Under the pieces are notes generated by a model. It did not search any database and had not been told where the DNA came from. It saw nothing but the letters and a program-made list of their open reading frames with translations. Position numbers and translations under genes: made by a program. A stretch of 64,000 bases of DNA from Octopus vulgaris (Eukaryota): positions 43,586,001-43,650,000 of the forward strand of contig OX597818.1 of the NCBI GenBank assembly GCA_951406725.2. The letters run 5' to 3'. Below are positions 27,001 to 56,600 of the stretch, one piece after another. Each line of letters opens with the position of its first letter. Positions within the stretch are counted from its first letter, which is position 1.

Positions 27001-30000
27001 TAAGGGGAAGAAAAAAACCACAAACTTTCCAACATTTTTTTTCATAAAAAGCTTCCCCACCATCATTTCCAAGGCTGTGGTAAAATATATTTTAAAAAAT
27101 TGGAAAAATCCCTGTCAAAAGGTTCTAATATGAAACTCCACTGTTTGTAGCCAATTTTAATAGGCCACTAAAATTTTATTGGAATGGTATCACATCCCAA
27201 AATTCAAGTCCCCATGGCTTGTACTTTTGAATTTAGCTAGATCTGAAATTGACTGTTTGTTACATGCAACAAAATAGACTTTACATAAATATTTTTAAAA
27301 TTGCCCCCCAAAAAGGCAGGCAACTGCTATTCCATGAACACTATTAATCTGTGTAATTTGAAGATATTATCACCTCAATTTCAAAGATATGACCTCACAA
27401 ATATGGCTAATTAATTTAAACCTAATTAAGCAAGGTATTGACCAATTTGCTGACCATTCAAATTGTCATCTAAATTTCACAAATTAGGTATCAAAATGTT
27501 TCTTTTTGGATTCTCTCCAAGAATAAGTATAATAGAAGTTAGATTTAAATTTTTCAAATATTCAGTGATTCTTATTTATATACAAAAATAGTCAATATAT
27601 ACATATTCACTAGTTGGTTTGAACATGCATACGTTAAACTTTCAAAATTCAAATTTCCTTACCATCAACTTTAGCTTTTTTGGCATTTTTACCATCATCC
27701 GTTTCCTTTTTACGTTTCTTGGTCTCTTTTGACCCTGTTGTAGACAAAAATTGAAAAGATCTTACCGGTATATCTAGTATCATTAAGATTCTATTTGTAA
27801 CTAGTTAATAAATAGAAACAACAGTCTATGTAGCAGTTATGAAACATTATTAACCCTTTAGCGTTCAGATTATTCCATCAAACATAATGCCTATTGATTT
27901 GAATTAATCATGCATTATCTCATATCTTCAATATCTTGATGGTGTAATTACTTAATGTAGAATAACATTGTAAGGTAGGTGTGAGAGCCTGGATCTGGTC
28001 AGTTTGAACATAAAGCAGATTAACTATTTTGGCCGGATATGGCCGGTTTAAATACTAAAGGGTTAAACATTCATAAATAGAGAAATTAAGCCATAAATAA
28101 AGGAAACTTCATATAAGAATCACATGCAATGATTTACAGATAAATATATGAAATTGAGTGATCTAAAAATGTAATAAGAAACCAAGATAATGTATCAAAC
28201 ATTCTGAATGTTATTTAGCAAGGAAAAACTGAATAAATTAAAAATACTAGAAGAAACCACAGATTGGCAAAATATCAAAAACAATTTGAAAATACTCACC
28301 ATCTTTCTGTTTATCATTTGTTTTTTCAATGGCCTTTGATTTAGGAGTATCATCTAAATTTTAAAGCAGAGATGTTATGTTTTAGTTTAATAAAAGAAAA
28401 ACACTTGCTAGTGAAATTATTTACCAAGACATCTTAATTCGTTATCAATTATTAACTGACTAAAAAAGGCTGTATACCTTCACTAGTTTCTTCTTCACTA
28501 GAATCCTCTTCTTCATCAGAGTCACTAGATTCAGCAGCTGCTACAGGTTTTTTCACCTTTGCCTTTTCTTCTTCCTCATCATCTTCCTCCTCCTCCTCTT
28601 CTTCTTCCCCTTCCTCACTGTCACTTTCCTCATCCTCACTGCTTTCTTCCTCTTCTTCCTCACTGTCACTAGATTCTACCTTCTTAGCTACATGCAAAAC
28701 AAAAGTAAGTTGTTAACGAAAGAATAAAGCAGTATAATCTATTCAAGGCAGAAAAATTTAAGTTTCTTCAATAAACTCTAATTTAGAGTACTGTAATTTA
28801 GAGTAAATTATTCTGCCTTGGACTTCTTATATCATTCAAAAATCAGAAGACTATAAACAACTGTAAGTAGAATACATTTCACAAATAAAAAATTAAATGT
28901 ATACAGCAAAACCTAGATATGGAAAAAAACTCAATGAAATCTTGAATTTCACCCCTATAGACACTCCTTGTTGAAAGTAGGCAAGTGTTAGCAACAGGAT
29001 GTGCATTCAGCTGTAGAATGTCTGCATAGAATTTCATCTACTTCAGGCAAGGATAGAAAAGTGGATGTCAACCCTTTAACATTCAAATTATTGTGAAATG
29101 TAATGCTTGTTTTATTCACATTATTTTGAATTAATCATGCTTCAAGAATTCAATGATGTGATTGTTCATTTTTAGAATGACATTGTAGGATAGGTGTGAA
29201 AGGCCAGATTTGGCTGGTTTGAACATAAAATGGGTAGAAATATTTGAGGCAAATGTGGCCAGTTTAAATTCTAAAAGATATATACATATTTGAGGCAAAT
29301 GTGGCCAGTTTAAATTCTAAAAGATATACACATATTCATTCAAGCCATTTGTCAATGAAACTCCAATTGTGAAAGATACTCACTAAGCCCTTTGTTACAT
29401 TTCTTACTCTAACCCATTCTCAATTAAATTCTCTTGCTGACTTTTCCCATTTAATAATCCAGTCAAATGTAACAGAGAAACAGCTCATCTTTCCACTCAT
29501 TTTCATTTTACTTCTACCCTCAGTTTAGAGTAAAATGTAACAGAGAAACAGCTCATCTTTCCACTCATTTTCATTTTACTTCTACCCTTAGTCACTCTCA
29601 ATCCTTTGACAGCTTTTCACTTCCACACTACTTCCTTAGTGTAACAACAAATTTTAAAAAATCATTATTATATTTGGATAATACTCATCAAGCCTTACCA
29701 GGTGTCTCTTTGCTTTTTGTCAGCTTCTTAGTTTTCATAACAGGAGCTACCTAAAAATAAGCAATATTTTTTTCCTTAAGCATATTTAAAAAAGTTTTAT
29801 TTGAAGCATCACTACTGTAAACTGCAAATTCACAAGTTAAAATTTCATATTTTCTACAACTGCTTTTGGCATGCAACTTGGCAGCTGCAGGTTAAACATA
29901 AGTAAAATAAAACTGACATTTCCAAAGCAGATATTCCTTTTTCTCTTATTCTTTTATTTGTTACAGTCATTTGACTGCGGCCATGCTGGGATGAGGTAGT

Positions 30001-30603
30001 GAGGCATGACCTTCGAACATTGGGCCTCACAGAGGCAATGACAAAAGATCGAGGCACTCAAAAGTACCTTGGATCGTAGGGCAACATGCTGTGCATGAGG
30101 AGACCTATTGAGTCAAGTACATCAATATCAGTATCAAAATCAAATCAAATGGAAATTGTAGTTGTGACCCACTTGCTGGTAGCACGTAAAAAGCACCATC
30201 CAAATGTGGCCAATGCCTGTGCTGCATTGACTAGCTTCCATGCCGGTGGCATGTAAAAAGCACATCTGATCATGATCAATGCCAGCTCCTCTGGTCTCTG
30301 TGCTGGTGGCACATAAAAAGCACCCACTACACTCTCGGAGTGGTTGGCATTAGGAAGGGCATCCAGCTGTAGAAACACTACCAGATCAGATTGGGGCCTG
30401 GTGCAGCCTCCTGGCTTCCCAGACCCCAGTCGAACCATCCAACCCATGCCATCATGGAAAAGGGATGTTAAACGATGATGATGATGAATGCACAGAAGAC
30501 AGAATAAATACATTAGAGTATTGGAGAGACTGCAAGGCAATTTGCTGCCTCAACTCATTTAATACATCTCTGTATATGAGTCTGCAAGATATATATGCAT
30601 ATC

Positions 30604-30658
<55 letters not shown>

Positions 30659-30844
30659 TGTCAGATGAATAAGGCACTTAAAGGTAAGGCACCAGGTTAG
30701 GTCTGAATTAAAATGCATGCACAGCAATTATAAACAAATACCAACATTGGTACAGAAGTAGTGGCAGAAGGATACTCAGGTTATGTATACAATTAATTGA
30801 AATCAACTGAGTATACTGTCAGCCTTTGGGCTAATTCAGAAATG

Positions 30845-30888
<44 letters not shown>

Positions 30889-33800
30889 CATAATAATGGT
30901 TTAAAATTTTGGCACAAAGATAGCAATTTCAGAGGAGGAGTTAAATCAATTACATCAAATTATTTTATCAACCCTGAAAGGATGAAAGGTAAAGTCAATC
31001 TCAAAAGAATTTGAACTCAGAATGTAAAGACAGATGAAATACTGCTAAACATTTTGCCTGGAGCACTAACGATTCTGCTACCTCACCACCATAATAATTT
31101 TTTCTACTATATATACACACTATCCAAAAAATTTTCTTACATATTCCAAACTCAACGACCATCAATTTTACAGGTACTATACTACTTTATTCATAATTGA
31201 GGTCTACTAGACTTTTGATACAAATAAAGCAAAATGAAAAGAATAATAAAATAACTTACAACTTCCATTTCTTCTGATTCTGAAGAGGAATCCTCTGAAG
31301 ATTCTTCAGGTTCTACAGGTTTTACAAACTTTTTTGGAGTCTAGCGCAAATAATAAAAATACTAATTGAAACCACTATCAACACAAACAGGTATTTTTCT
31401 GTACAAAATTTCATCTTTTCTGCTGGATCTTAATTTTATATTAACACATCAAGACTCTTTGGTTCCACTTTCAGAGAAGTTGTCTAAGTTTTTTATTATT
31501 ATTATTATTAAACTTTTTCAAACTTTTTACTAAAAAGAAATGTCTTCAAAGTTAGTGATGTTTGATTTCTTATGGCCATAAAATCAGGAGTCTTTTTTTT
31601 TGTATGATTTATTACTTTCAAAGAATGCAAAGAAATGTATCTTCCATAATAATATTAACATAAATGACATCATAATCTGCACGAAGCTCAGACTGGGAGG
31701 ACCTTACTGTAGATATGAAATTCATCAGCATTGGAAACAAAAATTCTCAGTATACAAGAATAAATGATCATTGACACAGTTGAATTATAAGAAACATATG
31801 CAAAAATAAATACATTCAAATCATAAATTACAAATTATTGACAGGGCAAACAATGGTTCAGAATTTGAAAACAGTTGCATCAAAATTCTGTTAGATGCTT
31901 GAATTTTGTGAACTATTTTGAAAACGAAACAAACATTTTATAGCAATGGCATAACTACAGATGTGTACCCCTCTGACTTTGTGTCCTCATAACTTCCAGG
32001 AAAATAGATACTTTTTAATGAAATTTTCAACAAATACCACTTAGATGCTGTGGATTCAGAGTATATAAAGATTTATGGGAAAGAATTTTTTGAGTGGAGT
32101 GGAGTGGATTCACACAATCTGACTTTTTTCCCTTCGCGACTTTCAGGAAAACGGATATGTTTTAGTAAAATTTTATACAAATACTTTTGAAATGACATAG
32201 ATTAAAATTATTAAGAAATTTGTGGGGAAAATTTTTTCTGGGAGGAGGGGGAGGAATTTCAGATCAGGAAGACTAAATAAGTTGGAACTACTTTGGGTAA
32301 TTTTTGGTTATCTCACCCAGCCCCATTAAAAAAAATTGGGCTATCTTCCCGCCAAAAAATTGAGTTAATATGGCAACAAGAGATTGGATTAAAAGAGATC
32401 CATTTGATTCAATACTTCAACACATGCCTCCTCTAATAGGCATAGTATGATTTATTATAAAAATATCAGATTCAGCAAGATGTTTAATTTTTTACCATTT
32501 TCATGTTTATTAATTTTTTTCAGTTTTGTATGATTTGTTATAAAAAATATTATCAGATTCAAAATGATGTTTCATCTTTCCATTTTTTATGTTTATTATT
32601 TTTTTTTTTATTGAGGGCTAAACATTTTATTTGAAGGAGATAACCAAAAATAGATATTTTTTTGTAAAACGGGGGGGGGGGGCAATTTTTTAATGGGGGT
32701 GAGATAACCAAAAAGTACCCTACTTCATTTTGACGGAGATTTTCCCCATTTTTTAACCACAGCCTTTGAAATGATGGGGTGGGGGCATCTTCTTGTGAAA
32801 AAAGTTTTGAAAATTTTTTGTACACCCCCATTCGATCCCACTCCAGACCAATTTTGGTCAATTTTTTTTTGCACTTCAAAACCATGGGAAGAGCCTTTTC
32901 AGTAAAAAAAAAATTTCAAAAATTAATATTTTCTGAGGAAAAAGTGAGTGATTTAAGGGAGATTTGGCAGGTGTTTCTAGCACATCCCAAGACAACCCTC
33001 CTCATTTCTTTCTCACTCTCGAATGTATTGATATTTTTCAATATTTTGCTCCCCAATAAATACATTTATATGCTATAAAAAAAATTGAAAAATTATGATT
33101 TTTTTTTTTGCAACCTCACACCCTGCCCCCGATTGTTTGTTAGAGCCTGAGAAGATCATTACTGGCATTTATCCAGTGATTTAAAAAAAAAAGAGCTATG
33201 TAAAAGACAATTCATTTTAATAGCATACTTTACTGTTAAAAAAATGTTTTTTCTTATACACACACACGGTTTCGCTTGATTGAGGTGGGGTATATTCAAC
33301 CAATGGACCGCGCACGTGTTACTTCAATATCACCATTCCATAAAATATGCTTAATGGGAGAAAAATATTGAAAAAACATCAATACATGTGAGAGTGGGAT
33401 GTGCTAGAAACAACAGCCAAATCTCCCTTGAATCGTACACCTTTTTCCACTGAAAATACTTACATTTTATTCTATTTTATTTTTTTTATCAAAAAGGCTC
33501 CTCCCATAGTTTTTAAGTTAAAAAAATTGGTCCGGAGTGGGATGGTGAGGAATGTGGTGGGGGGTTTAAAAGTTTTTTCACAAAAAGATGCCCCCTCCCA
33601 ATCATTTCAAAGGCTGTGGTGTAATAAAAAAAAGGGGATGGGGGGAATCCCCGACAAAACGGAGTAGTTACAACTTATTTGGTCTTCCTGATCCGAAATT
33701 CCTCTCCCCACTCCCTCGGGAAAATTTCCCCACAAATTTCTTTATAATCATAATCTATGCCGCTTCAAAGGTATTTGTATAAAATTTCATTAAAAAATTT

Positions 33801-36683
33801 TCATTTTCTTAAAAATTATGAGAGAAAAAAAGGCTCAAAATACAGATCTTCACCCGTGCATAACCCCCCACCCAGCCTGCTGGGTGTTAACAAGAATGTA
33901 GAAAACGAATATGAAAAAAAAAAATTGCGCCAAGACCCGGGAGGAGGGGTCAGAAAATTCACAAAATCCGATTTTTCCGTCATAACTTTCGGTAAAATGG
34001 ATATATATATATATATATAAATTTTTTTTTTTTAACAGAAACCCATGTTTTTGGTTATGGATGATCCGATTCTGAAAAAAAAGATTTTAAAAATCGCATT
34101 TAAAAAATTTCAACCGCTCCCCACCCCTTCAGTTCTCACTTTTTCCGGAAATTTCCTATTTTTCTACGTATTTCCCGGAAAAAGTGGAAAATGAGGCGGG
34201 GGGATTGAAATTTTGAAAATGCGATTTCTGAAATTTCTTGTTTCAGAATCGAATCCTCTATAACCAAAAACGTGGGATTCTATATGAAAAAAAAAAAAAA
34301 AAAAAAAAGCGAAAGTTATGACGGAAAATCGGATCTTGTGGATTTTCTGAAAGCCCTCCTCACCCTGCACGGGTCGTTAGCGCAAATTTTTTTTCATATT
34401 CATTCTCTACATAGTTGTTAATACCCAGCAGGCTGGTTTATTATCGTGTAAGTTTTCTGACCCCCACCCCCAGAACTCTTTCCCATAAATCCCTATATAT
34501 TTTAAATCCAGCGCTATTTGTTGAAAATTTCGATAAAAAGTATCCATTTTCCTGGAAGTTATGAGGATGCAATGTCGTGGTGGGTCGGGGTACACATATG
34601 TAGTTATGCCACAGCAACAAATGATATACGATATTGATAAATGGTTGTACTGGAAAGGATTACATAGTGTGAGAAAATGGGAGTTGGGGAAAAAATTCTT
34701 CAAACTAACTTAGACATATTTTGAAATTTTAATCTCCTTTACGTTTTTTGTTATTTTAATTGCAATGTCATGGCCGATTGACATCGTATTTCACTTTATT
34801 GCTCACATATAAATAAATTCTAAGATAGTATAAAACAAGACGATTAGTTTAGGTTCAGTCACGACAAATACCTCCAGAAACTAATCAAAAGTTTGCAAAC
34901 AAATGTTTCTTTTGCAAAAAGCATTGGATTTTAAGGTTACGTTAAAAATTACCAAATTGACATAAACACTGTGTACACAAAATACAATCTTGTCTACATT
35001 CATACATTTTTAACCCTTTCTATACAAGGTGTATTATTTCTTTATTGCCCACAAGGGGCTAAACATAGAAGGGGCAAACAAGGACAAAGGGGTTAAGTCG
35101 ATTACATCGACCCCAGTGCGTAACTGTTACTTAATTTATCGACCCCGAAAGGATGAAAGGCAAAGTCGACCTCGGCGGAATTTGAACTCAGAACGTAATT
35201 GCAGACGAAATACCTATTTCTTTATTACCCACAAGGGGCTAAACAAGGACAAAGGGATTAAGTCGATTAAATCGACCCCAGTGCGTAACTGGTACTTAAT
35301 TTATCGACCCCGAAAGGATGAAAGGCAAAGTCGACCTCGCGGGAATTTGAACTCGGAACGTCACGGCAGACGAAATACGGCTACGCATTTCGCCCGGCGT
35401 GCTAACGTTTCTGCCAACTCGCCGCCTTCCTATACAATGTTTCTGCTTACAGAACAAAATGGGTTAAGAATAATCCGACCATAATAAGAAATAATTTCTC
35501 ATTCATGACAAAGCAATTAAGATAACCGAACAACGTACAATAACAGACAACATGGAATTTAAACAGTATATGACTGAAAAGTGCATAATGATTACCTCAT
35601 ACCCCTTTTCATGGCGCAGCTTAGCCTCCACCGTAGACTCACAATACCGGTTAGTGGGTGTTGTTGCAGGTTGACACCAGCTTGCACACAAACCAGGAAA
35701 TCCATTGCAGCATTCAGAATCATTTGCACGGTAACCATTTATCGAAACACGGCCAAATCAAAACGATATCGCAGCCAATGGCTTATATTTCGGTACCCCT
35801 CGAGCCAAATGGCATTACCGACCGACACACGAGGAACCACGACAGCCAAATTCACCGCATGGGTGAAAAGACGCACGTACCAAAGCGACCACCATAATTG
35901 CGAAAATTTACCGAATCGAGATCTTGTTTGTTTAATCAGTATAATGTAATGATTTAATCATTATTACAAATTATATTTGTAAATTCTAAGTCTAAAATGC
36001 TTGATCTATTAAAAAAAAAAAACTCTTAACCTAATTGATTTTTAATTAATATTTATAGATGGACAATAAAAGTATCTCATTTTTAAAAAAAGTTATTATA
36101 CTTTAGAACTAAGGTACTAATATATAATAAAGTAGAAGTAGATTTAACTTCTTAAATCTCTGCAGCATTATGTGTTTAATTTCCATTGATCATATATATT
36201 TATATGTCATCTTTGTCAATTCAAACTCCTGCATCAAGTACCACCAGACATTTCTTCAACAATGAATGGCCTAGTTATAAACTGGATGTTTAAAATTAGG
36301 GATATGCTTTTTCTATTTCAATGAACCAGCAATCAGATCAAGCAGTGAAAGCTATTAAGGTTTAAAAAAAAATACCCGATATTTTAAATTTTAAGTTATT
36401 TATTTGCCATTAGGTAAATATATATATAGATATTGAATTTTCTCAAAGCCATCATAATACAAGCTTTAACCGATCGTTATTTTTGCTGTGATTTCTTTGG
36501 AGATGCACTCCCATCTATAAATACTCTTAAAAAATGTGGATTCCGTCCCCATTTGCTTGGATTTCAGGTTTTATATTGCAATTCTAACCTGCTTATAAAT
36601 AAATTGATATATTCAAAATATCTCGTCTCTAAATAAAAGAGGAAACCAACATAACAACATACCTTATTCTTTTTAGCAGCCAT
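21074..36683 (-). CDS. NCL: Nucleolin-like protein, copy A (14 coding exons, ~498 aa, 3 RRMs + GAR-like tail)
   Basis: Hand-spliced GT-AG exons with consistent phase: 36663-36683 (MAAKKNK), 31260-31340, 29699-29750, 28478-28687 (acidic), 28300-28353, 27663-27734 (KKRKKETDDGKNAKKAK bipartite NLS), 25487-25604, 25260-25396, 24994-25129, 24587-24726, 23383-23518, 23115-23254, 21264-21425 (G/R-rich), 21074-21111 (GTGKKKTFSDSD*). Total 1497 nt. RNP2/RNP1 motifs LFVKNL/RGFAYIEF and LLIRNL/KGIAFVEF; TPKK and TPAK CDK-type motifs. This architecture is diagnostic of the nucleolin/Nsr1 family. Confidence 0.9.
22614..23005 (+). mobile_element. tRNA-derived SINE (head TGGCTGTGTGGTAAG...GGTTCAGTCCC) with composite tail
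   Basis: Pol III A/B-box-like head followed by a CORE-like TTGGGCAAGTGTCTT segment. Other copies at ~3845-3990, 4803-5150, 12113-12445, 16590-17045, 20265-20600, 21660-21990 and 61110-61460. Confidence 0.85.
31960..34600. mobile_element. Nested foldback/palindromic DNA element(s) in intron 1 of copy A
   Basis: Diverged inverted pairs: ~31960-32090/34480-34600, 32150-32290/33660-33810, 32740-32900/33490-33640, 32960-33050/33355-33430 and 33870-34160/34170-34437. Confidence 0.75.
35032..35428 (-). mobile_element. tRNA-derived SINE with Meta-domain-like core, tandemly duplicated
   Basis: GGCGGCGAGTTGGCAGAAACGTTAGC head and GCCTTTCATCCTTTCGGGGTCGATAAA core. Copies at ~25865-26090, 30895-31090, 40710-40900 and 63230-63435. 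Confidence 0.8.
35480..35970 (-). other. Conserved structured non-coding element in intron 1 of copy A (candidate poison exon 35596-35922 or intronic ncRNA)
   Basis: The reverse complement aligns nearly letter-for-letter with 42445-42960 over ~500 nt, whereas adjacent intron aligns poorly. Long-range sense-strand pairings are visible. Confidence 0.75.
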
Positions 36684-36850
36684 TTCACTTTGTTTTCTGG
36701 AATATTATATCGAACAAAATTTTCACTTGCTCTGAATTTTCTCTGTAAAAGAAGAATGAATACGTGCGCACAGTCTAATTCACTTTATGGCGTAGCCACT
36801 ACGATATAGTTTCGTATTTACTGATTAAATATCTCCAGAATTTGATTTTG
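36684..36850 (-). promoter_or_regulatory. 5' UTR/core promoter of nucleolin copy A with a pyrimidine-rich (TCT/TOP-like) stretch
   Basis: Homologous to 41450-41616 (shared ATCAAAT-CTGGAGA...ATACGAAACTA...GTGGCTA and CCAGAAAACAAAGTGAAATG). Sense TTCATTCTTCTTTTAC lies at ~36745-36760, just downstream of GTGCGCACGT. Confidence 0.55.
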
Positions 36851-41449: not shown

Positions 41450-41616
41450 AATCAAATGCTGGAGACATTTATTCAATAGATACGAAACTACATGGTGGTG
41501 GCTATACCTTGCCACTGCTAAGAAAAGTGTACGTACAGCTTCGAGCTACAGTTACAGAGAACATTCATAGCAGCTGAACTTTTTATTCGGTATATTATCC
41601 CAGAAAACAAAGTGAA
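41450..41616 (+). promoter_or_regulatory. 5' UTR/core promoter of nucleolin copy B
   Basis: Aligns with the reverse complement of 36684-36850; homology fades beyond this. Confidence 0.55.
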
Positions 41617-44600
41617 ATGGCTGCTAGAAAGAATAAGGTATGTTACGATAGTTTCCTGTTTTATTTAGAGGCTAAAATATTTTGAATTACATAAAATTTA
41701 TTTGTAAACGGGTTTATATTTACAACATTAATCTTGAAGGAAATGGGAGTGTAAAATATTTCTAAATCTCCCACAAATCTCCCCGAATTACAAATAACTA
41801 TTAAGATCTCGTATAACTACATTATTTAGGAAATTAGCAATATATATAAATATATATATAGATAAATATTTATATGTATTTATATATATGCATCTTAGGA
41901 CAAAATACACGGATTTTGCTTAAAATGGAAAATATCAAGTACTTGTTTTAACCTAAATTTTTCTCCCATCTTCATCTGATTGCTTATTTCCTAGAAATGG
42001 GGAAAAAGCAAGATATATGCATTTGTCTATATCATTTTTATGTATATTATTATATACATATGCAACCTTAATTTTAAACAACTTGGTTTAGTTTGTAAAT
42101 AAAAGAGGCCATTGTTTGTAGAAGCTGTGAAAAATCAACGGTGGCACTTGATCCACGAGTTTGAACTGACAAAGACGACTACATACACATTCTTAATATA
42201 GGTCAACTGAAATTAGCAGAACGTAATACGGCGATAGATTTAAGAAGTTAGGACTTCTTTGTGTATTTATTATATTACTACATAAAATGCATTCCTGAGT
42301 ACATATGGTTGTGAAATTCTGATATTTTATTTTCTCTAGTTACCCTTTTAGAAACAATAACATTTAAAAACCTTTTATCGTTGCGATTTGCGGAAGACTT
42401 TTATTATATCATTATTTAGGTCCTGTTCGGAATTTAGAGGATCTAATTTGTAATAATGATTAAATCATTACATTTTACTGATTAAACAAACAAGATCTCG
42501 ATTCGGTAAATTTTCGCAATTATGGTGTCGCTTTGGTACGTGCGTCTTTTCACCCATGCGGTGAATTTGCCTGTCGTGGTTCCTCGTGTGTCGGTCAGTA
42601 ATGCCATTGGCTCGAGAGCTACTGAAAATAAGCCATTGGCTGCGATATCGTTTTGATTTGGCCGTGTTTCGGTAAATGGTTACTGTGCAAACATCAAGTG
42701 GTTATCGACTATCACATGATTCTGGATGCTGCAATGGATTTCCTGGTTTGTGTGCAAGCTGGTGTCAACCTGGTCTTACAACAACACCCACTAACCGGTA
42801 TTGTGAGTCTACGGTGAAGGCTAAGCTGCGCCATGAAAAGGGGTATGAGGTAAACATGATGCACTTTTTCAGTTATATACTGTTAAATTCTATGTTGTCT
42901 GTCATTGCACGTTGCTCGGTTATCTTAATTGCTTTGTCATGAATGAGAAATGATTTCTTGTCATGGTCAGAATTATTCTCACGAGAGTTCGTTCTGTCGG
43001 CACAAACTATTTATTGTACAACACACCATTGTATCAAAAAGTTTACGCAATTGTGTTATACATCTTGTAGAATAGCCTGTTTATATATATCAATTTTTAT
43101 CTATTTATTTCTATTTGTTAACTTTTGATGTAATATTAAAATGCGGGCCCCAAATATGAAGATACGTCTGTTTGGGTAGCTTATGAGTTGTGTTTACTTC
43201 TGGTTTTCTTGTCTCTAACCACTTCAGATAAGTGAGCAAGAAATCGGAATACGATGTCTATCAACCATGACATTTGCAATTAAAATAACAAGAAACGTAA
43301 CGAAGATAAGATTTTCAAAACGTGAAGTTTAACTGAAAATTTTGAGCAATCAATGTTGCATATTTTCTTTTCATAAACCCTTTTCTCGAACTGTGATATC
43401 ATTTCTAGCACAAAGAATCTGTTAACCATTGTGTTAAAATAAATAAATATATCGTTTGTCATTGTAAAATGTTTGGTTGATCCTTAAAATAGTTCACGAA
43501 ATTCAGGCATCTAACTGAATTTTTAAGCAGTTATTCTCTGCTTATGAACTATTATATCTGTCTCGTTCATTAATAATTCATAATTAACGACAAAGAAATA
43601 TTTTTCATGTTTTTTTAATTTTTTTTATTTGATATTGCCTATGGTCACTTCGTATTTAGTGAATTTTATTTTCTAATGCGGATGAGTTTCATGACTATCA
43701 TAAGGTCCAACCGATCTTGATCAGTGTGTAGATAGTAGTATTAGTGATGTTTTATTAAAATAATTTCTCTGCATTTTTTTATATTTTGGGGAGATATGTG
43801 GAGGAAGGGCGGTGAACATAAGATTGAAATGCTTCCAGCGTACTCTGTTAAGAAATGAACTTTTCATTAAATATGTTTTAAAAAAAGTATTGCCATGGAA
43901 AACATGATTTTATGACGTTCTTCGCCAATCATTTAGAAGCAAGATTCAAGAGCAGAACGTGTTAAATGCTTTCGTGGTAGGAAATCGACCAACACTAGAG
44001 AGTATTTGATAAATAAATTCAATACTAATCGGTCCCTTAAACACGAGTTCTCTAATAGTGAGACCAGAACCTCTTGGCGGTAATGAATTCAGATCTAGTA
44101 TAAAAGAAAACATAGAATCGCTGGATAAAGTAATGCTGGGATGCGAAATAGGTTTAGACGGCTACTGCAGTTCAGAAGTATCACAGGCTTTTGTGAAGCA
44201 TTCAGTTGGGGTACAATAATTTTATACAAAATATACTTATTTTGTTTGCTTATATTTTCCCGATGATGTACTTGAGTTTGAATATTTGTTTCAATTACTG
44301 AATTTTATAATTTGAAATAGAATCCAAAAAAGTCAGCTGAAGCTGAAGAATCTAATGAAGAGTCTTTTTCAGAACCAGAAGAAATGGATGCTGTAAGTTC
44401 ATATATTCTATTTTTATTTTCTTATTTCAAAGTTAATAAATATTAATATGCTTATCATAATTTATTTTATGCCGCCCTTTCCATGCTGTCATGGTTTGGA
44501 CATATCATCATTGTCTCGGAATCACTACATTCCTAAACGTGTTGCAAGATATTATCTTGCTCGTACATTTCATTTTTTTTTTTTGCATGGTTCCTCTGGC

Positions 44601-47600
44601 AGGGTGCCTTACCCAACACCAACTATTTTAGGTGTACTGGGTGCATTTTATCATGGGACCAGCATCAAAGTGGTACGACTAAAATCCTCTCTACTCTGTG
44701 TTGTCTTTGTTATTCGATCACTTTATAGTGTTTATAAAGTGCATTTTATTGTAGTACCAGCATTAGAAAAGTTGCCTTATCCCTTGCAAAACTAAAGAGT
44801 TCTGTCTATGTAGTCTCTGTTCTTTCAAGACAGACATAACCAAGAGTGTGATTAGAAGCGTTCGTCAAGAGGGTGAAAGAGGAGAGAAAGATAGTATGAT
44901 TGTGATGGAGTGAAACAGTGATAGAATGGTTGGGGAAGGAGTGATGGAAGAGAGACATTGATGACTATTTGTTGTTATTGATAAAGAGATTGAATAGAGA
45001 ACAACATGATTAGTGTTATGGATAAGTAATAAAACTGGGTAAGAGAGAGTGACTAAAGGGCAACATTAGAGATGGATGAGGTGAGATTGGTAAAAGTTAA
45101 TGAAGAGTTACATGTGTGGAGAATGGTGGTTAATAGTTGAGGGTGAAGATTCCATGCATGTTAAGACAAGCATCATGATGGAAGAGAAGTGGCGTGGTAG
45201 CTGTATGGTGGTGAGTGGATTGAATGCAAACAAATCAGATAACATCTCTGGTTATATAGGCAGCATAGTGAAGTGAATAGGATAGATGAGAGGCTAATGA
45301 ATATGGTAGCAAATGGAGGTTTGGTAGGAATATAATAGGCAAAAGATCCAATGATATATATTCCAGCCACTATTACCATCACCATTATTTTAACAACTAT
45401 TTTGCCATGCCTGCATAGTGGCCAGGTCTTCTGAGCACTATGTGTTCCCATCTATCACTGTTCTTTGTCATCTTCTTCTTTAAGTTTAACTTCTTGAGGT
45501 CAGTCTTCACCACTTCATCACTAAGTCTGACCTTTTTCGTATACATTACATACCCACACCAGTACAATCTTCTTTCTTGCACACTTATCTAATAAAGCAG
45601 GTTCGTTTGATTTATTTCCAGATACCATAGATGCTCTGCATTTAAGGCCTGTGTTTCACTACACAATCACCATACATTCTGCTCTTTGTTTTGCAATAAT
45701 AACTTCCTGAACTTTCTATACTTCCCTTCTTACTCTAGTCACTTATGCTTTCAATACACCACCTCAACTACATCTTTGAGACTTCTCAGCATTTGAAAAA
45801 TATGTATTTCATGGGTATTATTACTAACTAACCTTACACATCTGCTACAAATGAAGTCTACCTTCTCTATCAGTCTGTCTATGGTCTTACAGCACCTCAT
45901 GTTTACATCAGGTATACTGAATGGAATTCCTACGTAATAAAGTTTTAGTCTTTACCATGTTTATTTTGAGAAATCTCAATTCTAGATTTTGTTTCCAGGT
46001 CTGAAATTTCTTCTATAGATTCAAATATAAGAAGTAGATCATCAATATACAGTAGTATGTCTCAAAGACAGCCAGTTTTAAAGTCCTCTGTTTACAACCT
46101 GGAAGACTATAATAGATGCCTTTGTATATGGATTGTATGGCCCTTACAAACCATTTGTCTTTCTCTTATTGACCACCAGATCACAGAACTTAGAACCTTG
46201 TCAGAAGCTTTCTCCAGGTTGCCAAATGCCAAGCAAAAGGGTTCACTCCTATCTAAGTTCTTTTACAGTTATTTCACTAGAGAGATAGTACAAATTGTAG
46301 CACAAAATTGAATGCATCTCATCTAGGTTAATTTTCTTTATAATTAATTCATTCTGCAATTTCCATGATCTGCCTTTATATCCTTAATTTCACTTACAAC
46401 TACAAAATGTTCAGAACGGCATTGTTTTTATCAGAAAAGTAGGTATAAGTTTTTATCAAAGTTGTTTTAGTTTCTATAATTTTCACATACAATAAATACG
46501 ATATTGTCATTGTCTGAGATTTTGGTGTAATTTGAGAGGATAATACAAAAGTTATGGATGATTTAGTGATTTACTGCAAAACCCATGGCGGCCAAAATGA
46601 TCAGAACGGTTGCTTTTACTCCGTGTTTTAACTGGTGAACTCCAATGTTTTGAATTTGTTTACCTGACAGTTCGTTTACTAAACATTAGTAAGAATATCT
46701 GCAGTGTACTTTGTTATCAGCAGATTATTAAGCTTCGAAAGAAGGATAATTTAAGTATTGGGTCTATTACAAAGGTTGTTAACAAGTCAAAAAGTGTTGT
46801 TCACGGTATTCTTAAGGTCTATGATGATTGTGGTTCGTGTGAAGCAAGAAAGTCTACAGGTAGGCCAAGAAAAACGACCAAGAGAGAAGATCGTGCTATG
46901 GTAAAGTTGGTTAAAAAGGACAGATTTAAAACTGCTGCTGCTGTTTCTCGGGAAATGAGCATTGTACTGAAGAAAACTTTATTTCGAAAAACTGTGTCTC
47001 GTCGTTTAGTTGAAGAGCACCTGCAGTGAAGCCACTGATCAGCTCCAAGAATAAAAAGTGTCGTCTTACCCTTGCAACCGAACGTGTGTTGTGGTCTCAA
47101 GAAAAATGGCAAACGGTGCATTTCAGTGATGAATCTAAGTTTGTTATTTGGCTCAGATGGGGGAAAACTATGTTCGTCGAAAAGTAGGTGAAAAATTGTC
47201 GCCTAAATGCCTTAAGACTAGGGTTTAATTCAGTGGAGGAAGTGTCATGGTTTGGGGGATGATATCTGGAGATGGTGTGGGCCCTTTGGTGTGATTACAT
47301 GGAAAGGTAAATGCAGGAGTTTATAAACAACTTGTAAAAGATCATGTCTTGCCTGTGCTGAGAAATTCAACTAAGCGACCACCCATATTCATGCAGGGCA
47401 ATGCCCCATGTCACAAGGCTAAGGTGGTCATGAACTTTCTCAAGGCTGAAAAGATTATTGTTATGGATTGGCCTGCTCAAAGCCCAGATCTCAATCCTAT
47501 TGAAAATGTGTGGAATATTCTAGGAGAACATTCGAAAGCCAGAAATCCTAAAACAACCAAGCAATTATGGAATGCCCTTCGGGAAGAATGGAATAAGATC

Positions 47601-50600
47601 ACCCAGCAAGAAATTGAAAATTTAATTTCCTCATGCAGTCGAAGTTGTCAAAGTGTGATTGAAGCTAAAGGGCTTCACACTAAATATTAAATAATTCCAG
47701 TATTCTCTGTCATTTTTGATTATTTTATTATTTTTTCAACCATTCTGATCATTTTGGCTGCCATGGGTTTTGCAGTAAATCACTAAATCATCCATAACTT
47801 TTGTATTATCCTCTCAAATTACACCAAAATCTCAGACAATAATAATTAATATCGTATTTATTGTCTGTGAAAATTATAGAATATAAAACAACTTTGATAA
47901 AAACTTATACCTACTTTTCTGACAAAAACAATGCCGTTCTGAACATTTTGGCCGCAACTGTATATAATGCTGTCAACTTTGCAGGGTTTACATGGAATAC
48001 ACCCTCTCTTTCCTGTACATTCTCTGCATTAAACAGTCTCTTACAATTGTACTTTTTTGCCTCTTTCCATTTCATTTAGAGTAAGTGTACCATTATCATT
48101 TTGTATACGTTTCTCAATGACATCTTGATTTTCTCTCATATACTACCTTCTAATCTGAAAGACTTCACATTCCCGAACCTCTGTAAACCTCTTCATTTCA
48201 GCTCTGAATATCTGATGTTTAGCTTCTCTTCCGGTTGCTTGGTATTGCTCTTTGTTGTCTCTTTCCTGCAATTTTTCCAGATCTGTTTCTTAGTTTCAAG
48301 TATCTACAGTATTCCATATTCCACCAGTATATCACCTATCTAGCTATAAGCTTACACCAGCCAAAGATCTAGTTTGTATCCCTCAGCATTTTGTGTCATA
48401 GGTACTCTATTATCCCCTATTGTAGGTAGGTGTCCAGCACTTCTCTGAACCTATGACTGGTCATTGGCTCTTTAAGTGTCTACATCTTCAAGTTGGCTTA
48501 TGCTATGAGTTTTCCTAGCTCTTACTCCGAGTACTTGTCTATGTTAGGTATTACATTTTTCACAACAACCTGTCCCACTTCCAGGGAGGCATGAAATCAA
48601 TTTAGTTTATGTATTCACCTGATTGGTCCTCTTCATGATGTTGGTGTTAGCAAATTGTTAGGTCATCAGTGTCACAGAATTCCAAGGCCTTGATTCTTTC
48701 TTATTACTTCAACAATAACCATAGCCACAAAAGACATGTATTAGCCAACATATTCATTAACATCACCAGCTTTTATAAGCAGGTTAGTCATTCACTATTG
48801 AGGTATTCTATAAGAGAGTCTCAGAACCGGCCATTTTGTTCATCTATTAACTGATTGTAGGGTATATACAGAGATAACTGTCTCTCATATTGTCCAAGAC
48901 AAAACTTAACTTAATTATTCTATTACATATTCTGTGGCTCAGTTATTTTATCAATACATTTCTCTGCCAACAACATGCCTTTTCCACCCACATCATTGCT
49001 GCTACTAACCCAGGGGAATTTGTACCTGTGTTCCTTGCTTCTAAGGAAGCAGGCTGAGACCCCATTCCTTCTTAGATCATATTTACAACACTTTAGCATC
49101 TCTATACTCTCTCTAGATTTAACTATTAAATCAAACCAAATCAAAATAGATGAACATCAATGGAATTTGTATCCTTGTGGTACCAGTGCCGGTGGCACAT
49201 AAGATAACAATCCGAACGTGGCCGTAGCCAGTACCGCGTCGACTGGCCTCCGTGCTGTGGGCACGTAACAAACACCATCCGATCATGGCCGTTCGCCAGC
49301 CTCGTCTGGCACCTGTGTCGGTGGCACATAAAAAAACACCATCCGAGCGTGGCCGTCTGCCAGCCTCGTCTGGCACCTGTGTCGGTGGCACATAAAATCA
49401 CCCACTATACTCTCGGAGTGGTTGGTGTTAGGAAGGGCATCCAGCTGTAGAAACACTGCCAGATCTGACTGGCCTGGTACAGCCTTTGGGCTTGCCAGAC
49501 CCCAGTTGAACCGTCCAACCCATGCTAGCATGGAAAGCGGACGTTAAACGATGATGATGATGATGTAGTAGCTCTAAATTTTTTAACCTAGCAGGAAGAG
49601 TATGAGTGGCTTGATGTTAATTTTCTACAAAAGTTGGTGCAATTGCTTGCAACCTGTCGACAGACTCATTGTGCCAGATGTTTCTGTTGATTTTTAAAAA
49701 ATGATTTCTTAATATGAATTTTTATTGTTTTATATATAATTTTTTTGATTTCTTTCTTTTTTTTTAGGAAGTTGCAGAAGCTACAAATGCTAATGTGGTA
49801 AAACAAAATAACGATTCACCTGGTAAGATTTGGTTAACACTTTTGTTACCATATTTCTGTTGAGATGCTCTGTGTTTCTTTCAATTACTTTAACCCTTTT
49901 GTTATTGTATTTATTTTAAGATGCTCTGTGTTTCTTTCAATTATTTAAAATATAACAAAGAATTTAGTAAAATAACCTAGTTATCATTAAGCTAGTGTTA
50001 GGAATATAAATTGCGACTAAGGTTTGGTGGTATATTTTGATGCAAAACTTATGAAAACAAGACATTTGTACTACAGAGCCAGTTTTGGCCGGGTTGGTAA
50101 CGAAAGGGTTAAATATAACAAAGAATTTAGTAAAATAACTTAGTTATCATTAAGCTAGTGTTAAAGGTTTGGTGGAAGATTTTAATTCAAAACTTATGAA
50201 AACAATACATTTGTACTACAGAGCCGGAGGCTGTTTCAGGCAGGTTGGTAATGAAAAGGTTAAGATATTTGTATTTCAATCACTCATTCATAAAGGTTTG
50301 GTGGAAGATTTTAATTCAAAACTTATGAAAACAAGACATTTGTACTACAGAGCCAGAGCCGGTTTTGGCTGGGTTGGTAACGAAAGGGTTAAATATAACA
50401 AAGAATTTAGTAGGATAGGAAACAGTTACTGAAAGATATTGTGTTATTTATTTGTATTTATTTTCCAAGAACACTCTACGTGGCTTTTTTTTTTAGGGCT
50501 TCAGAGGCTGGTCAGGAAAAGTTATCCATTCATAATTTTGCAATATGTCCTGGCTTAATGACCTGCTGGTGTTAAACCAGGTCACACAAGTTTCAGTTTG

Positions 50601-53600
50601 TCCAGTTTCTCTAATACAGCTTCTCTCTACCCAAGACTACGGTAGATGACACTTAAGTGACTCACAGTGAGATGAAGCTAAGCAAGTGAAAATTGAATCG
50701 CTTGATAATATAGTCATACCTGCTAATTGAATTTCCCACACATTTAGATATTTTTTCGTAATTTGGATTTGTTCAATTCAATTTTTATTGGCTCAAAAAG
50801 CAAAAGCAAGGCCATGTAGGGGGACAGGAAGTTATGTACAGGGAGGGTGGTCATACAAAGAGCAAGGCCATGTAGGGGACATGGAGTTATGTACAGGGTG
50901 GTGTTCATGTAAAGAGTTCAGGCCACTTGTGGTCAAGGGAGACTTTGAACCGAGCAGTCGTCGGCATCTTCACTATCTCATCCGGCAGCTTATTCCGCGG
51001 ATCTGCAACCCGGACGGAGAAAGCCCCTCTCCTTCGATTGAGATGAAATTGTTGTAGATAGAGCTTTTAGGAGTGACCCCGCAGCCCACACTCTAGAGCA
51101 GGTGTGAAGAACAGCTCTTTCAAGAGGTTACACTTCCCGCTTATGATGTTGTGAGCGAGAATGAGATCATCACAGCGGCGGCGTTTTTCAAGAGAATAAA
51201 GGTCGGGTGTCTTCAGCCTTTCTTCATAAGACAAATGCTTGAGACCAAGAACCATGCGAGTAGCCAGCTTCTGGACTCTTTCAAGATGATGTATGTCTTT
51301 GAGGAAATAAGGAGTAGAGGCTTGAATCCCGTACTCTAATATGGGTCTCACCAGCGTGACATAGAGTGGTAGGAATATGGCTGTTGTAAATCATATCAAT
51401 GTGTTTTGATATGTGAAATACAATGCATTACTTTGTAGACTGTTGTAGTTTAAAAGTGATACCAGTATTGTAAGACAGTGGATTTTTTGCCTTGAATACA
51501 TTATACTGATTCAGTCTTCAATGTTGTCTGTCTTTGTTTTGTATGCAGCAAAAGGAGATGAAGAATCTGGCGACAGTGAGGCAGATGGGAAGAGAAGTGT
51601 TGAAGATGAGGAGAGTGAGAGCAATGAAGGTGAGGAGGCAGAGGAAGAGGAGGAGGAGGAGGAGGAAGCAGCAGTAAAAAATACTACACCGGCTGCTGAG
51701 TCAGGTCATTCTGATGAAGAGAATTCTAACGAGGAAAATTCTAATGAAGGTATATGATGGTCTTTTATTCTGATTGCTGATAAAATAAACTATATCTTGG
51801 TAGATAGTATCACTGAGAAATATCCCTCTTTTCTAATATTTAACTAAAACTCATCTTCTGCTTTAGAACCAGATGATTCCCCTAATTCAAAAGCTAATGG
51901 AAAATCTAATGGTAAGTTATTTCTGTTAGCTTGTTTTCTCTATTCAGTAGTTTCTCTCAGTTTGATCACTTTTTATTTGCTAATTCAATCGGTGTTGCAT
52001 ATTCAAAATGTTTGCTACATGTTTACATAATGCTGTTTAATATGCTGACTATAAATAAATTTGTACAGTTTGTACATAAAGTTAAATTTGAATATACTTT
52101 AATTTCTCTGTTTATGAATGTTTGATAGTATTTCATAATTATGACGCACATGGTTTTGTTTCCATTGTTAAATAGTTTGAAATAGAATCTTTCTTTTTTA
52201 ACTACACCAGGTGAGAGAGAAGCCAAGAAGCGTAAGAAGGAAGTTGATGATGGTAAGATGCTTTGAAATTTGAAAGATTAGTGTGTGTGTATGATGAAGT
52301 CTACTTAGAGAAAATTTTGTATTGTTGACTTCTAAATACTGTATTTTAATAAAAAAAAGATTTCATACCCAACATTGTTTGTGGAGTTACTGCTGGCATC
52401 TTTTTTGGTTGTTATGAAAGTAGGCTGAGGCTGTATCAACTAAGAAATAAAATAATTTCAGTTTTAACTCTTACATCAACAATGACGTGTTGAGGTTTTG
52501 AATCAATAATTATTCTAGTAATCATATTCCCTGGAATATGATGGTGGAACTTTATATGTGTAGCTAAGCCATGTAAAGAGCACTGGTGCTGGTGCCATCT
52601 TAAAAGCACCGAGTGCACTCTGTAAGGTGTTTTACATTAGGAAAGGCATCCAGCTATAGAGACCGAGCCAAAAACAGATTATGGAATCTGGTGCAGCCCT
52701 TGGCATTGCCAGCTCTTGTCAAGTCATCCAACCCATGCCAGCATGGAAAATGGACATTAAATGAAGATGTTGAAATATAGCAGTGCTCACTTCAGCAGTT
52801 TGTGCCAATAATAATATATGAATAATTAAAAATAAAAACAAAAATAGTTAAATTGTCAGGTATGTCAGTGGTTGATTGCAATTTCAAATTAATAATAAAT
52901 TATGTTTAGCATTCAACAATAAAATAATACAAAATTTTATTATGTAATTTGAAATAACAATAATGATGACTGTTTATGATGGCAAGTATCACATCCTTGT
53001 TCAGGGATTGTAGTAATGACAGTGGCTCATAATCAGGATGATGGTGATGATGGTTGTAAATCAAATTCATCCAATACTTGACAATCCTGTAAACTAAATC
53101 TGATTCTCGTACTCTTTATATTGACTCTTGGATCTGAAGTTTTGGTAATCCATCAGCATTTTTGTGTGATTTTGAAACTTTATATTCATCATCATCATCA
53201 TTTAGCATCTGCTTTCCATGCTGGCATGGGTTAGACAGTTTGATTTGAACTGATAAGCTGGAACGCTGTACCATGTTCCTGTCTGACTTGGCATGGTTTC
53301 TATAGTTAGATGCCCTTCCTAATGCCTACCATTCCAAGAGTGTAATGGGTACTTTTTATGTGCCACTGGCACAGGTGTCAATTACATGACACCAGCATCA
53401 GCCATGACTATGATTTCACTTGGCTTGACTTGACTTGACAATTCTTCTCAAGCACAGCATATCGCCAGAGGTCTCGGTCACTTGTCACTGCTTCTGTGAG
53501 GGCGCACACTCTCCTACCCTGATGTAATCTCCAGGGATACAGGCATCCAGCAACCGGACCTCCGTAATGCTCTGATGGACTGTGAAGTCTGGCGTAGCAT

Positions 53601-56600
53601 GGTAAATTCCATTGTCTCAACCACGGTCGAACAATGATGATGTGAGGCCCAATGTTCAAAGATCATGCTTCACCACCTCATCTCATGTCTTCTTGAGTCT
53701 ACCTCTTCCACAGAGATCAGCACTTCTTTACACAATTATCCTCATCCATATGCATCACATGGCCATACCAGCACAGTCGTCTCTCTTACACACTACATCT
53801 GATGTTTCATGCCCAAATTTTCACTCAAGACGTTCACACTCTATCATACATGCACACTGATATTGCACATCCAGAAAAGCATGCTAGTTTCAATACTTTC
53901 AAGCCCATGCATGTCCTCAGCAGTCACAGCCCATATTTCACTGCTGTGTAGCATGGCTGTTTGCACACGAGCATCATACAATCTGCTTTTTACTCTGAGG
54001 GAGAGGCTTTTAGTTACCAAAAGAAGTAGGAGCTTTCTGAACTTTGCCCAGCCTATTCTTATTCTAGCAGCTACGCTCTTGGAGCATCCACCTCCACTGC
54101 TGACTTGGTCATCTAGATAGGGGAAACTATCAATTACTTCTAGGTACCCCCCACCTGCCATTTGATGGAATCTATTTTCTGTACACTTTTAGTGTTTATT
54201 GTACTGGTGCACCTGCCATGCACAAATACTATTTTCCCTGTTAACCTTCTTCTGATATTGCTGCACCTCTTGTGTATCCATAGCTTGCACCAGGTACATC
54301 TTACAGTGTTTCTACCTGCATCTTTTCTACATATTGAGCAGGGCCATCTACCTGAAGGGATTTGTAATTTGTCCTCTTTTCTACTTACTAAGACTTTGGT
54401 TTTTACTAAATTAACTCTAAGGCCCTTTGATTCTAGACTTTGCTTCCACATCCGAAATTTCTTTTCTAGTTCTGGTAGTGAGTCAGCTATAAGAACAAGG
54501 TCATCAGCAGCCTGACTTAAATTCCTCTGTTATTGCCTAGAGGACTATGATGAACAAGAGGGTGCTAAGCACCAATCCTTGGTGAACCCCTACTTGTACT
54601 CTGAATTCATTGCTATACTTGTTGTCAATCATCGCCTTACTGACAGCATCCCTGTACATAGTTTGTACAGCTCTCACCAACCACTCATCTATCCTTAGTT
54701 TATGCATTGGTCACCAGATAAGGGAGCAGGGGTCCCTGTTGAAAGCTTTCTCTATGTCAACAAAAGTCAAGTATAGAGGTTTATTTTTGGATTGGTACTT
54801 CTGCAGCTACCTTACCAGAAATATAGCACCAGTGGTGCTCCTCCCTGGCACAAAATCAAACTGCATCTTATCTAGACTAACTCTCTTCCTAATTAGTTGG
54901 GCTATGACCCTCTCTGTAATTATTTGTCTTAGGCATCACCTTTATTTTTGTAGCAGTTGGCTATGATTCTGCTCCACCAGTCTTTAGGTATGACTCCCTC
55001 ATGTACAACCTGATTAACTATACTGGTGATTAAGCCATAACCCATACTGCCAGATATTTTAAGCATCTCAACAGTGATTCCTGAAAGGTTGGGGGCTTTT
55101 CTAGTCTTCATATTCTTCATGGCTTTATCTATCATGCTCCTGTCTATTTGGATTGCTGGTCCCTCTGTTGTATCCACAGTAGGTAGACTCTCCTCCTCCT
55201 GAAAGTTTGCTACATTTAGTAGCCTTTCATAGTGGCACTTTCAAACCTCTTTCGTTGCATGTGAACCATCATCCATGTGAATACACTTCTCTCCAACAAT
55301 ATCACAATTTTCCCTGGCACACTGACTTGCAATGCAAGCCAAAGCACTTCAAGCTGCTGGCCCTTATGCTACATAACGTTGGCAAGCTTTTTCCTTTCTG
55401 CTTCACCCCTAGCTAAGTATACCTGCCTCCTAGCTGCCTGATGTAGCTTCTTGCTACCACCACACTTCCAGTCCTTCTAAGCCTGTTTCTTTGTTCTAAT
55501 GGCCCTGTCAACTACACTGTTCCATCACCACATTAACCTAGGTCTGGTTGGGATTTTGCACTAACCATAAATTTGGTCTGTGGCTCTCAGCAAGTTGCCT
55601 TGCAGGAACTTCCAGTAATAAACTGTCCTAAGTCTGCAACTCCTATTTCTCATTAAATGTTTCAGTTAGGATGTCTCTAAATCTCTAACTATTCAAAGGA
55701 TCCTTAAGCTTCCATATCCTTCTTTTCCAAACTGGCTTGCTTCTTGGTTTCTTTCATGCCTGTACCTTGAACTCACTACTGAGTAACCTATGCTGAGGGG
55801 TTGTATATTTGTACGATGCCATTAAAATCCCCCAGCATTGTTGTTGAAATGTAAATAAAAGTGTATTTTTGTCTCCTGAGAATATGTATTAGTTTTTGTT
55901 GTTGGAGATTAATTTAAAATGTTTTCCATATGAGTAATGATTTTAAGTTATGAAGACTGAATATAATACTTTTTCTAATCCATTATAGAACCAGTGACAG
56001 TTCTGTGTAGAAATGTTCCCCAGGAAGTGACTGCTGAGAAATTTGAGAAATTTCTTAAGAAGAAAGGAATTGAATTTGCATCTGTCCGTAAACAAGACAA
56101 TAAAAAGTGTGTATTAGATTTATTTATTACCCATTTTATGCCTGTTTTTCTGTGCTTTTCACTACTTCTTTATCATTCATTTTTTATTTTTTGTATTCTT
56201 CTTTTATAGGTTTGCACATATCGACTTAGCTAATCCTGATGACCTTGATGCAGTCCTAGCCATGCAGGATATGGAATATAAAGGATCTATATTGATATTT
56301 GAGAAGGGTAAGCCCATGGGGGCATCAAAACCAGAAAGAACAGACAGAGATAAGGGTATGTTTATGTTCTCTCTGAGTATGAATGTAATTCTAAAATATT
56401 TGTGAGTTTAGACTGGCTTTGTATGACAATATACAAGCTCTATCCATTAAATGTATTGCTGTGTTTTGCATAGCAGTTAATCTTTGCTGTTATTCTATGT
56501 AGCTTTTTAAATGGAATAAAGTAAAGTGAATAATCAGTGGGGTTTTTTTTTTAGTTTTGAGAAAACCGACTGAAGTCTGGTTTCTTCTAAAAAAATTTGG

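Follow-up and report, generated by a model that had tools for sequence, protein, structure and literature searches.

A conserved element in intron 1 of three octopus nucleolin paralogs lies between two alternative splice donors

Why would several hundred nucleotides of intron 1 remain nearly identical between two nucleolin genes of Octopus vulgaris? The question is raised by a 64,000-nucleotide stretch of contig OX597818.1 (assembly GCA_951406725.2, positions 43,586,001 to 43,650,000, forward strand), which we call the window and to which our coordinates refer. The window holds two nucleolin paralogs, A and B, each with one copy of the element, and a third paralog, C, lies past its end. The element is real, is under selection, is undescribed, and is of a known kind, the unproductive-splicing elements. 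On balance, we favor the reading that it is a cis-element for unproductive splicing: a donor-choice switch that is coupled to nonsense-mediated decay (NMD) and is most likely fed back by nucleolin.

If B 42430-43007 (plus strand) is aligned to A 35986-35439 (minus strand), the identity is 87.6% in an alignment of 582 columns that includes 38 gap positions. This is the top self-match within the window, and it bears out the estimate of about 90% in an earlier note on this DNA. The adjoining intron was said to be gapped and diverged, and it is: upstream, at 42066-42250, B and A are 69% identical with 28 gaps. The earlier note also described two paralogs with the block, but there are three paralogs and three copies. 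A genome-wide DNA search found at least three copies (three matches in three candidates), one in intron 1 of each paralog, and, at the sensitivity of this search, no copy outside the three nucleolin introns. A profile search of 164 kb recovered only the three copies used to build the profile. The high copy number that would mark a repeat was not seen (the count of three is a lower bound), and we rejected a transposon or dispersed repeat.

The element, 300-550 nt long, is separated from exon 1 by 0.8 kb in B, 0.7 kb in A, and 3.7 kb in C. The copy of A occupies 35439..35986 on the minus strand, within intron 1, with a distal donor after 35596. The core (B 42549..42860, plus strand) is common to the three paralogs, with ungapped differences at 11/281 positions between B and A, 28/308 between B and C, and 17/280 between A and C. 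The 5' part (42446..42548, plus strand) is found in B and A only, which differ at 1 of 103 positions. It cannot be aligned to C, where there are just short islands, namely a branch-point-like motif (ACTGAT-AAA-ACAA) and CTCGAT; the similarity of C spans B 42549 to about 42930, and the 5' 100 nt are absent. Behind the distal donor is a conserved flank (42850..43007, plus strand; 6/94 differences between A and B over 42861-42955). A is without 25 nt and 6 nt that are present in both B and C. Because B and C both carry the 25 nt, this difference is a deletion in A, and not an insertion of about 24 nt in B as had been claimed.

Some smaller features lie nearby. A near-perfect AU-rich inverted repeat (42451-42469) marks the 5' edge of the element in A and B, and behind it are the branch-point-like ACTGAT and then a weak AG at 42493-42494. 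The ACTGAT-AAA-ACAA motif is kept in C amid otherwise unrelated sequence. Intron 1 also has a second short block, 43228-43320 (plus) versus 34810-34719 (minus), that is 84% identical between B and A, which exceeds the 70-78% of other B/A intron matches; we found none in C.

Could the near-identity reflect recent gene conversion between neighboring paralogs, without any function? A and B are inverted copies that are 6.4 kb apart, and a single difference separates them in the 5' 103 nt, as conversion would have it. For a yardstick, we took fourfold-degenerate sites from six segments of the exons that encode RNA recognition motifs (RRMs). These sites differ at 19/75 (B-A), 29/66 (B-C), and 23/66 (A-C), or 25/44/35%, versus 3.9/9.1/6.1% in the core (Fisher p of 1.5e-7, 1.8e-10, and 6.3e-9, respectively). 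The core is slowed by about 5-6.5 relative to fourfold sites, and the order of divergence is B-A < A-C < B-C for both. Because the slowing is similar in every pair, as a constrained clock predicts, the core is, judging from these divergences, under selection in all three paralogs rather than homogenized by conversion. The 25 and 6 nt that A lacks also argue against conversion, as does conservation against another organism, and we consider this explanation to be largely refuted.

That other organism, organism C, is represented by sequencing run X14. In one of its contigs, no more than 4 of the 212 nt at 42839-43050, which are the donor region and 3' flank, differ, as against 25 or more over the following 366 nt (43051-43416; p = 0.009). 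The contig has 29 differences in total over 42839-43416, and the 25 that are listed are all at 43051 or beyond. The contig of organism C that covers the element has 10 differences from B, nine of which are A letters, but it may be a mosaic of paralogs. The sequencing runs of five organisms contain at least half of the element's sampled words. Two scans of metagenomes gave 0 loci and 9 loci, and all nine match just 18-23 nt around the search pattern, which we take as chance. Our comparison of conservation covers the three octopus paralogs and the organisms of the sequencing runs.

What, then, is the core preserved for? At its end, all three copies have a potential splice donor, GAG|GTAA. We compared four sequencing runs (X1, X3, X5, and X14), all as contigs, over 41450-44450, and we did not use contig depths to rank isoforms. 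That these are RNA is our guess, without a label in the records, as it is for all 14 of the element-bearing runs; X3, X5, and X14 show spliced contigs, and X1 does not. There are gaps in the cover, which we count neither for nor against: X3 and X5 have almost none at 42876-44318, and X14 has none over most of B 41652-42440. Contigs from X3 and X5 contain the proximal joint, 41637 to 44321 (GT..AG), which links coding exon 1 of B (MAARKNK; 41617..41637, plus strand; proximal donor AAG|GTATGT) to exon 2 (44321..44392, plus strand, seen in contig joints and loose ends). The distal alternative donor, GAG|GTAAAC (42847..42855, plus strand; last exonic base 42849), is used in a contig from X3. This donor (42849|42850) and the third paralog were missed in the earlier note. 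The duplex with the 5' end of U1 from the same genome is about as strong for the distal donor (-6.9 kcal/mol) as for the proximal donor (-6.8 kcal/mol).

The contig with the distal junction, X3 contig 12, matches B 42628-42849 without any difference and then continues with 242 letters from the first base of A exon 2, which sits behind an acceptor AG (A exon 2 start, 31310..31340, minus strand, with the AG directly before 31340). The 32 nt before the joint (42818-42849) are identical in A and B. Because the contig bears B letters yet joins A exon 2 across these 32 nt, it is best read as a mosaic of A and B whose junction is A's. Trans-splicing of B to A could also account for the contig, but a graph mosaic across the 32 shared letters is the simpler explanation. 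Each donor is thus in use in vivo, the proximal one in X3 and X5, and the distal one in a single X3 contig and in paralog A only.

The distal donor could belong to an extended exon 1 or to a cassette exon. Several contigs cross the candidate acceptors upstream: X5 contig 14 (41914-42569), X3 contig 9 (42313-42569), and a contig from X1 (42239-42930). X14 contig 2 (719 nt), whose spacing resembles that of A, reaches unspliced from exon 1 to where the element begins. Because contigs run unbroken through the upstream acceptors, and because there is no joint of exon 1 to an inner acceptor among the contig pieces listed, our data favors an exon 1 that extends as far as the distal donor. In organism C, another contig from X14 (42839-44393) runs from the donor region through the rest of B intron 1 and exon 2 and is spliced into exon 3 (which starts at 49768, plus strand); this would fit intron retention, a fragment left by cleavage, or an artefact of filtering alike. 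We rejected RNA editing at 42597 and 42617 (A>G), as these are paralog letters, and we rejected recursive splicing at AG|GT from the sequence, as the stretch upstream of the AG is purine-rich and not pyrimidine-rich.

Use of the distal donor would give the message an early stop. Translation of the extended exon 1 would end after 22 codons in B, 39 in A, and 38 in C, about 1 kb or more before the distal junction. In B, the first in-frame stop is a TGA at 41683..41685 (plus strand), 1164 nt before that junction, and in A the extension adds 1067 nt. Cassette versions from any of the listed acceptors have stops in all frames. A stop more than 50-55 nt before a junction triggers NMD. With its stop some 1 kb or more ahead of the distal junction, the distal isoform is predicted by this distance rule to be an NMD substrate.

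We also considered that the element might be an alternative coding exon that gives nucleolin another N-terminus. In B, A, and C, respectively, 58, 54, and 110 codons before the donor are free of stops in the frame that continues into exon 2, and B and C have an in-frame AUG there. However, A, which is the copy with the observed junction, does not; the copies differ in frame through indels of 25 and 4 nt; of the five substitutions within the final 45 codons, four alter the amino acid; and the extended exon contains 22-68 AUGs. We think that a coding role is very unlikely.

We propose that the element, which sits between the competing proximal and distal donors of intron 1, would be bound by a protein that shifts donor choice to the distal site. 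The bound protein might be nucleolin itself, and any paralog might then damp all three genes via the common core. The distal-donor message, with its early stop, would be degraded by NMD, so that surplus nucleolin transcripts would be discarded. Local hairpins, rather than one long rod, may govern access to the distal donor. Both NMD and nucleolin binding are inferred parts of this switch. A fuller version is self-control: free nucleolin, released as rRNA synthesis falls, would bind the folded core and turn splicing to the distal donor, and because the three paralogs have the core in common, they would form a cross-regulated circuit. We put this version forward as a tentative possibility.

Does the element have the structure that such a switch might use? 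The earlier note described a rod of about 300 nt. Every helix that it listed can be drawn as pairs, but these helices (H1-H6) have mean pairing probabilities of 0.00-0.01 in all three copies, and the forced rod is 24-38 kcal/mol above the optimum. The block as a whole is no more stable than shuffled sequences; its fold has z-scores of -0.83 (B) and +0.63 (A), with -1.65 for the antisense strand of B. Covariation does not support the rod either: with only three sequences, 332 of 500 shuffles do as well as the actual alignment. Differences between paralogs were said to preserve pairing. A change from G.U to A-U at 42597 would add one kept pair, which is outside our count, but among the changes in the rod's long-range arms in C, four keep pairs and four break them. 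An argument that G.U pairs reveal the RNA strand turned out to reflect composition, as shuffled sequences are also asymmetric (-135.9 for sense versus -105.3 for antisense). For the inner helix UACUGAAA/UUUCGGUA (42620-42627 with 42667-42674, within 42620..42674, plus strand; local z of -2.2/-1.6/-1.4), there is one two-sided change (C-G in B, U-A in C), but A has a C.A mismatch.

More local structures are predicted. A small hairpin with 6 bp (42549..42565, plus strand) has a double change from C-G to U-A in C, and the changed pair has a probability of 0.97/0.40/1.0 (B/A/C). A long imperfect hairpin is predicted just before the distal donor (42742..42842, plus strand); its pairs never vary, so covariation is uninformative for it. 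Together with the inner helix, these two hairpins make up a local model. Neither the rod, which would pair 42557-42601 with 42788-42830, nor the local-hairpin model is established by these computed folds. A helix that might hide the donor (42675-42690 with 42844-42860) has -7.8 to -14.1 kcal/mol in isolation, and we set it aside for its low probability in full folds. The predicted energy landscape around the donor is flat, which is compatible with a switch that is set by a protein and is not evidence for one.

Alternatively, the element might encode a stable RNA with its own job, such as a snoRNA-like or scaRNA-like molecule or a long non-coding RNA, that is cut from intron 1 or is left over from NMD. 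It is a long block of near-identity that is rich in G and U, with two two-sided changes; 14 runs that we guess to be RNA contain at least half of its words; and SNORD86 leaves a comparable capped fragment (PMC7038934). The known classes have hallmarks: a C box (RUGAUGA) and D box (CUGA), with an antisense stretch of 10-21 nt to rRNA or snRNA directly ahead of D or D'; an H box with a terminal ACA; the m1 and m2 motifs of snR30; and, for telomerase RNA, a template complementary to TTAGGG. A and B lack a canonical C box, and we found no CUGA that is kept in the three-copy core or the 3' end. The copies share no H/ACA pair, with no H box at a common place, and the snR30 m1/m2 motifs are absent. 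The only resemblance to a telomerase template is 6 nt (CTAACC), short of a full template.

Rfam, at the gathering threshold, has no family for the element, and the only match elsewhere in the window is to 5S rRNA. At a relaxed threshold, matches have E of 0.53-9 only, and the best ones on the sense strand, to SNORD11B (E = 8.7) and SNORD73 (E = 9), we treated as chance. The earlier statement that the block matches none of U3, RNase P/MRP, SRP, 7SK, and the like agrees with this negative search. We also compared the element with the rDNA unit and the U1 of the same genome (U2, U4, U5, and U6 were outside this comparison). The longest antisense matches are 10 nt to pre-rRNA and 9 nt to U1, none is before a conserved CUGA, and the complementarity to U1 is lost in C. 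Contigs span both borders of the element, and its 5' 100 nt are absent in C, which also count against a discrete RNA. Overall, we consider it improbable that the element is such an RNA. The first interpretation of this block had offered two ideas, a cis-regulatory element tied to nucleolin or an intron-encoded RNA. The former agrees with what we found (one locus, selection in all three paralogs, and no Rfam family), and the latter found no support, as no C/D, H/ACA, telomerase-template, or snR30 motif is conserved.

How well does the proposed switch stand up? The conserved element does lie between two alternative donors of one intron, and the distal isoform does have a stop far upstream of its junction. 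Several observations weigh against the switch. The distal junction is in one contig from one of the four runs, and contigs from X1, X5, and X14 pass the distal donor unspliced. The contig is a mosaic (B letters, A exon 2), so use of this donor is shown for A only. The element is about 10 times as long as L10ARE (39 nt), and its conservation continues 100-200 nt beyond the donor, which is also expected of an enhancer or a decoy. The recognition motif of nucleolin is (U/G)CCCG(A/G), and it is absent from all three copies. Nor is the core more similar to pre-rRNA than shuffled sequences are: the best sense match is 23 nt (E = 0.57), and the core's local score was reached by 6 of 30 shuffles, so we rejected mimicry of pre-rRNA. 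The local model has two two-sided changes in 60 pairs, which is equalled by 88 of 500 shuffles, and it was drawn from folds of the same sequences and hence is favored by construction. Finally, no window on the sense strand has a z-score below -2.2.

The unspliced contigs would also be expected if the element were a decoy donor or decoy exon that keeps intron 1 unspliced, in a detained nuclear pool, with the distal junction as a rare by-product. Contigs from three of the four runs pass the distal donor, and the X14 contig from 42839 through exon 2 to exon 3 would fit. All three copies have a branch-point-like motif and a weak AG, 345-406 nt before the donor. A decoy would also resemble the conserved cryptic exons in retained introns of over 1 kb (PMC6097662). 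However, pre-mRNA would produce the same read-through, and exon 1 is joined to no acceptor ahead of the element among the contig pieces listed. In short, read-through contigs exist, the donor is used once, and no acceptor junction is among those pieces. We view a decoy as unlikely, if worth keeping in mind.

The element might instead act in the DNA, as a conserved non-coding enhancer within intron 1, with the donor incidental. Its location close behind exon 1 in B and A, and 3.7 kb behind it in C, would suit an enhancer, as would CpG observed/expected ratios of 0.97-1.17 in B and A. There are non-canonical E-box-like hexamers, one of them co-located in all three copies. However, such hexamers are expected by chance, the canonical CACGTG is absent, and a donor in actual use lies just ahead of the core's end. 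A Myc-bound first intron of the nucleolin gene would be a precedent, but our literature search found no paper on it. We give the enhancer little credence, and we retain the splice switch as our preferred explanation.

The host genes are nucleolins. The proteins of both A and B have an acidic N-terminus, followed by three RRMs and then a Gly-rich tail. A genome protein search (five candidates scored) gave exactly three nucleolin loci: A (window 20800-36700, minus strand), B (window 41617-60100, plus strand), and C (G000:C5:43654100-43667570, minus strand), which lies past the end of the window and has an exon 1, an exon 2, and RRM exons of its own; its copy of the element is 13.5 kb beyond that end. 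In a protein search with one RRM exon, three of four candidates passed, and all are named nucleolin (Octopus, Argonauta). A and B are head to head, B and C are tail to tail, and the exon layout is the same in all three. None of the compared RRM exon segments of A, B, or C contains a stop. B and A also match over the promoter-proximal region and the start of intron 1 (41450-41738, plus, versus 36847-36563, minus), with 76% identity in 292 columns. The N-terminal coding exons had been described as far more diverged than the block, but this is not so for exon 1 (36663..36683, minus strand, in A), which is identical at 37/38 positions between A and B; exon 2 is identical at 44/55, and the RRM exons are 80-87% identical. 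In Argonauta, one protein is nearer to B (69.6 versus 64.9%) and one is nearer to A (69.9 versus 58.2%). From these percentages rather than from a tree, the duplication of the paralogs seems older than the split of Octopus and Argonauta.

Elsewhere, the window has a dispersed copy of 5S rRNA (61475-61593, minus strand, 90 bits), and the repeat beside it recurs at 12113-12448, 20261-20602, and 22611-23008. The tandem rDNA array of this genome is at G000:C20:23.94-24.08 Mb, with units of about 18.4 kb and an 18S gene of 2.6 kb, and the 5' end of 18S has 29 additional matches dispersed elsewhere in the genome.

Why would nucleolin genes need such an element? The level of nucleolin follows growth and ribosome output. 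If nucleolin is the sensor, then it would join L10a and NOP56 as ribosome-biogenesis proteins that read their own intron. The element would then be a new nucleolin-binding RNA that is unrelated to pre-rRNA, and intron 1 of nucleolin in other animals would deserve a look. If nucleolin is not the sensor, the element is still among the most constrained non-coding sequences of the locus, and it would be a clean invertebrate case of unproductive splicing that was kept through two gene duplications. We found no report of this element or of a splicing feedback loop for nucleolin in any species in a literature search by title and start of abstract, with subscription papers mostly outside it and supplements unread. 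The main text of PMC6547761 never mentions NCL or nucleolin; its supplements, where candidate events are listed, lie outside this negative and could bear on novelty. Our view of the element draws on several known systems.

The ultraconserved poison exons of SR and hnRNP genes are hundreds of nucleotides long, are much better conserved than the coding exons, and are tied to unproductive splicing of RRM proteins. They are mostly vertebrate cassette exons in splicing factors; the octopus case concerns a molluscan gene for a nucleolar protein and an alternative donor. An intron decoy of OGT is reportedly of the same kind as the decoys in SF3B1. The decoy exons in intron 4 of SF3B1 are conserved cryptic exons in a retained intron of over 1 kb (Parra et al. 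2018, PMC6097662). They are also highly conserved non-coding blocks with rare junctions, but they are cassettes with acceptors, and in octopus only the donor side was seen in use. In yeast, intron structure controls the paralogs RPL22A and RPL22B, and both the main and the alternative 5' splice sites take part (PMC13630204). That control acts by stalling splicing, and there is no sequence relation to the octopus element.

Two systems are closer. In NOP56, which is a ribosome-biogenesis gene, the distal of two donors keeps SNORD86 in the message and makes it an NMD substrate (Lykke-Andersen et al., via the review PMC7038934). As in octopus, an RNA element lies between the two donors, but SNORD86 is a C/D snoRNA that senses snoRNP proteins, and the octopus element has no conserved C/D boxes. 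In C. elegans rpl-1 and human RPL10A, L10a binds the 39-nt L10ARE between two 5' splice sites and switches the donor, and the distal choice is unproductive, with a premature stop (Takei et al. 2016; PMC4937301). There too, the host encodes an RNA-binding ribosome component or factor, and by the same source the element need not mimic an rRNA site. The octopus element is much longer at 300-550 nt, no sequence relation was seen, three paralogs have the element, and binding and feedback are proposed here but proven there. By analogy, and as far as tested, the octopus element may work like L10ARE and SNORD86, and by sequence it is a member of neither.

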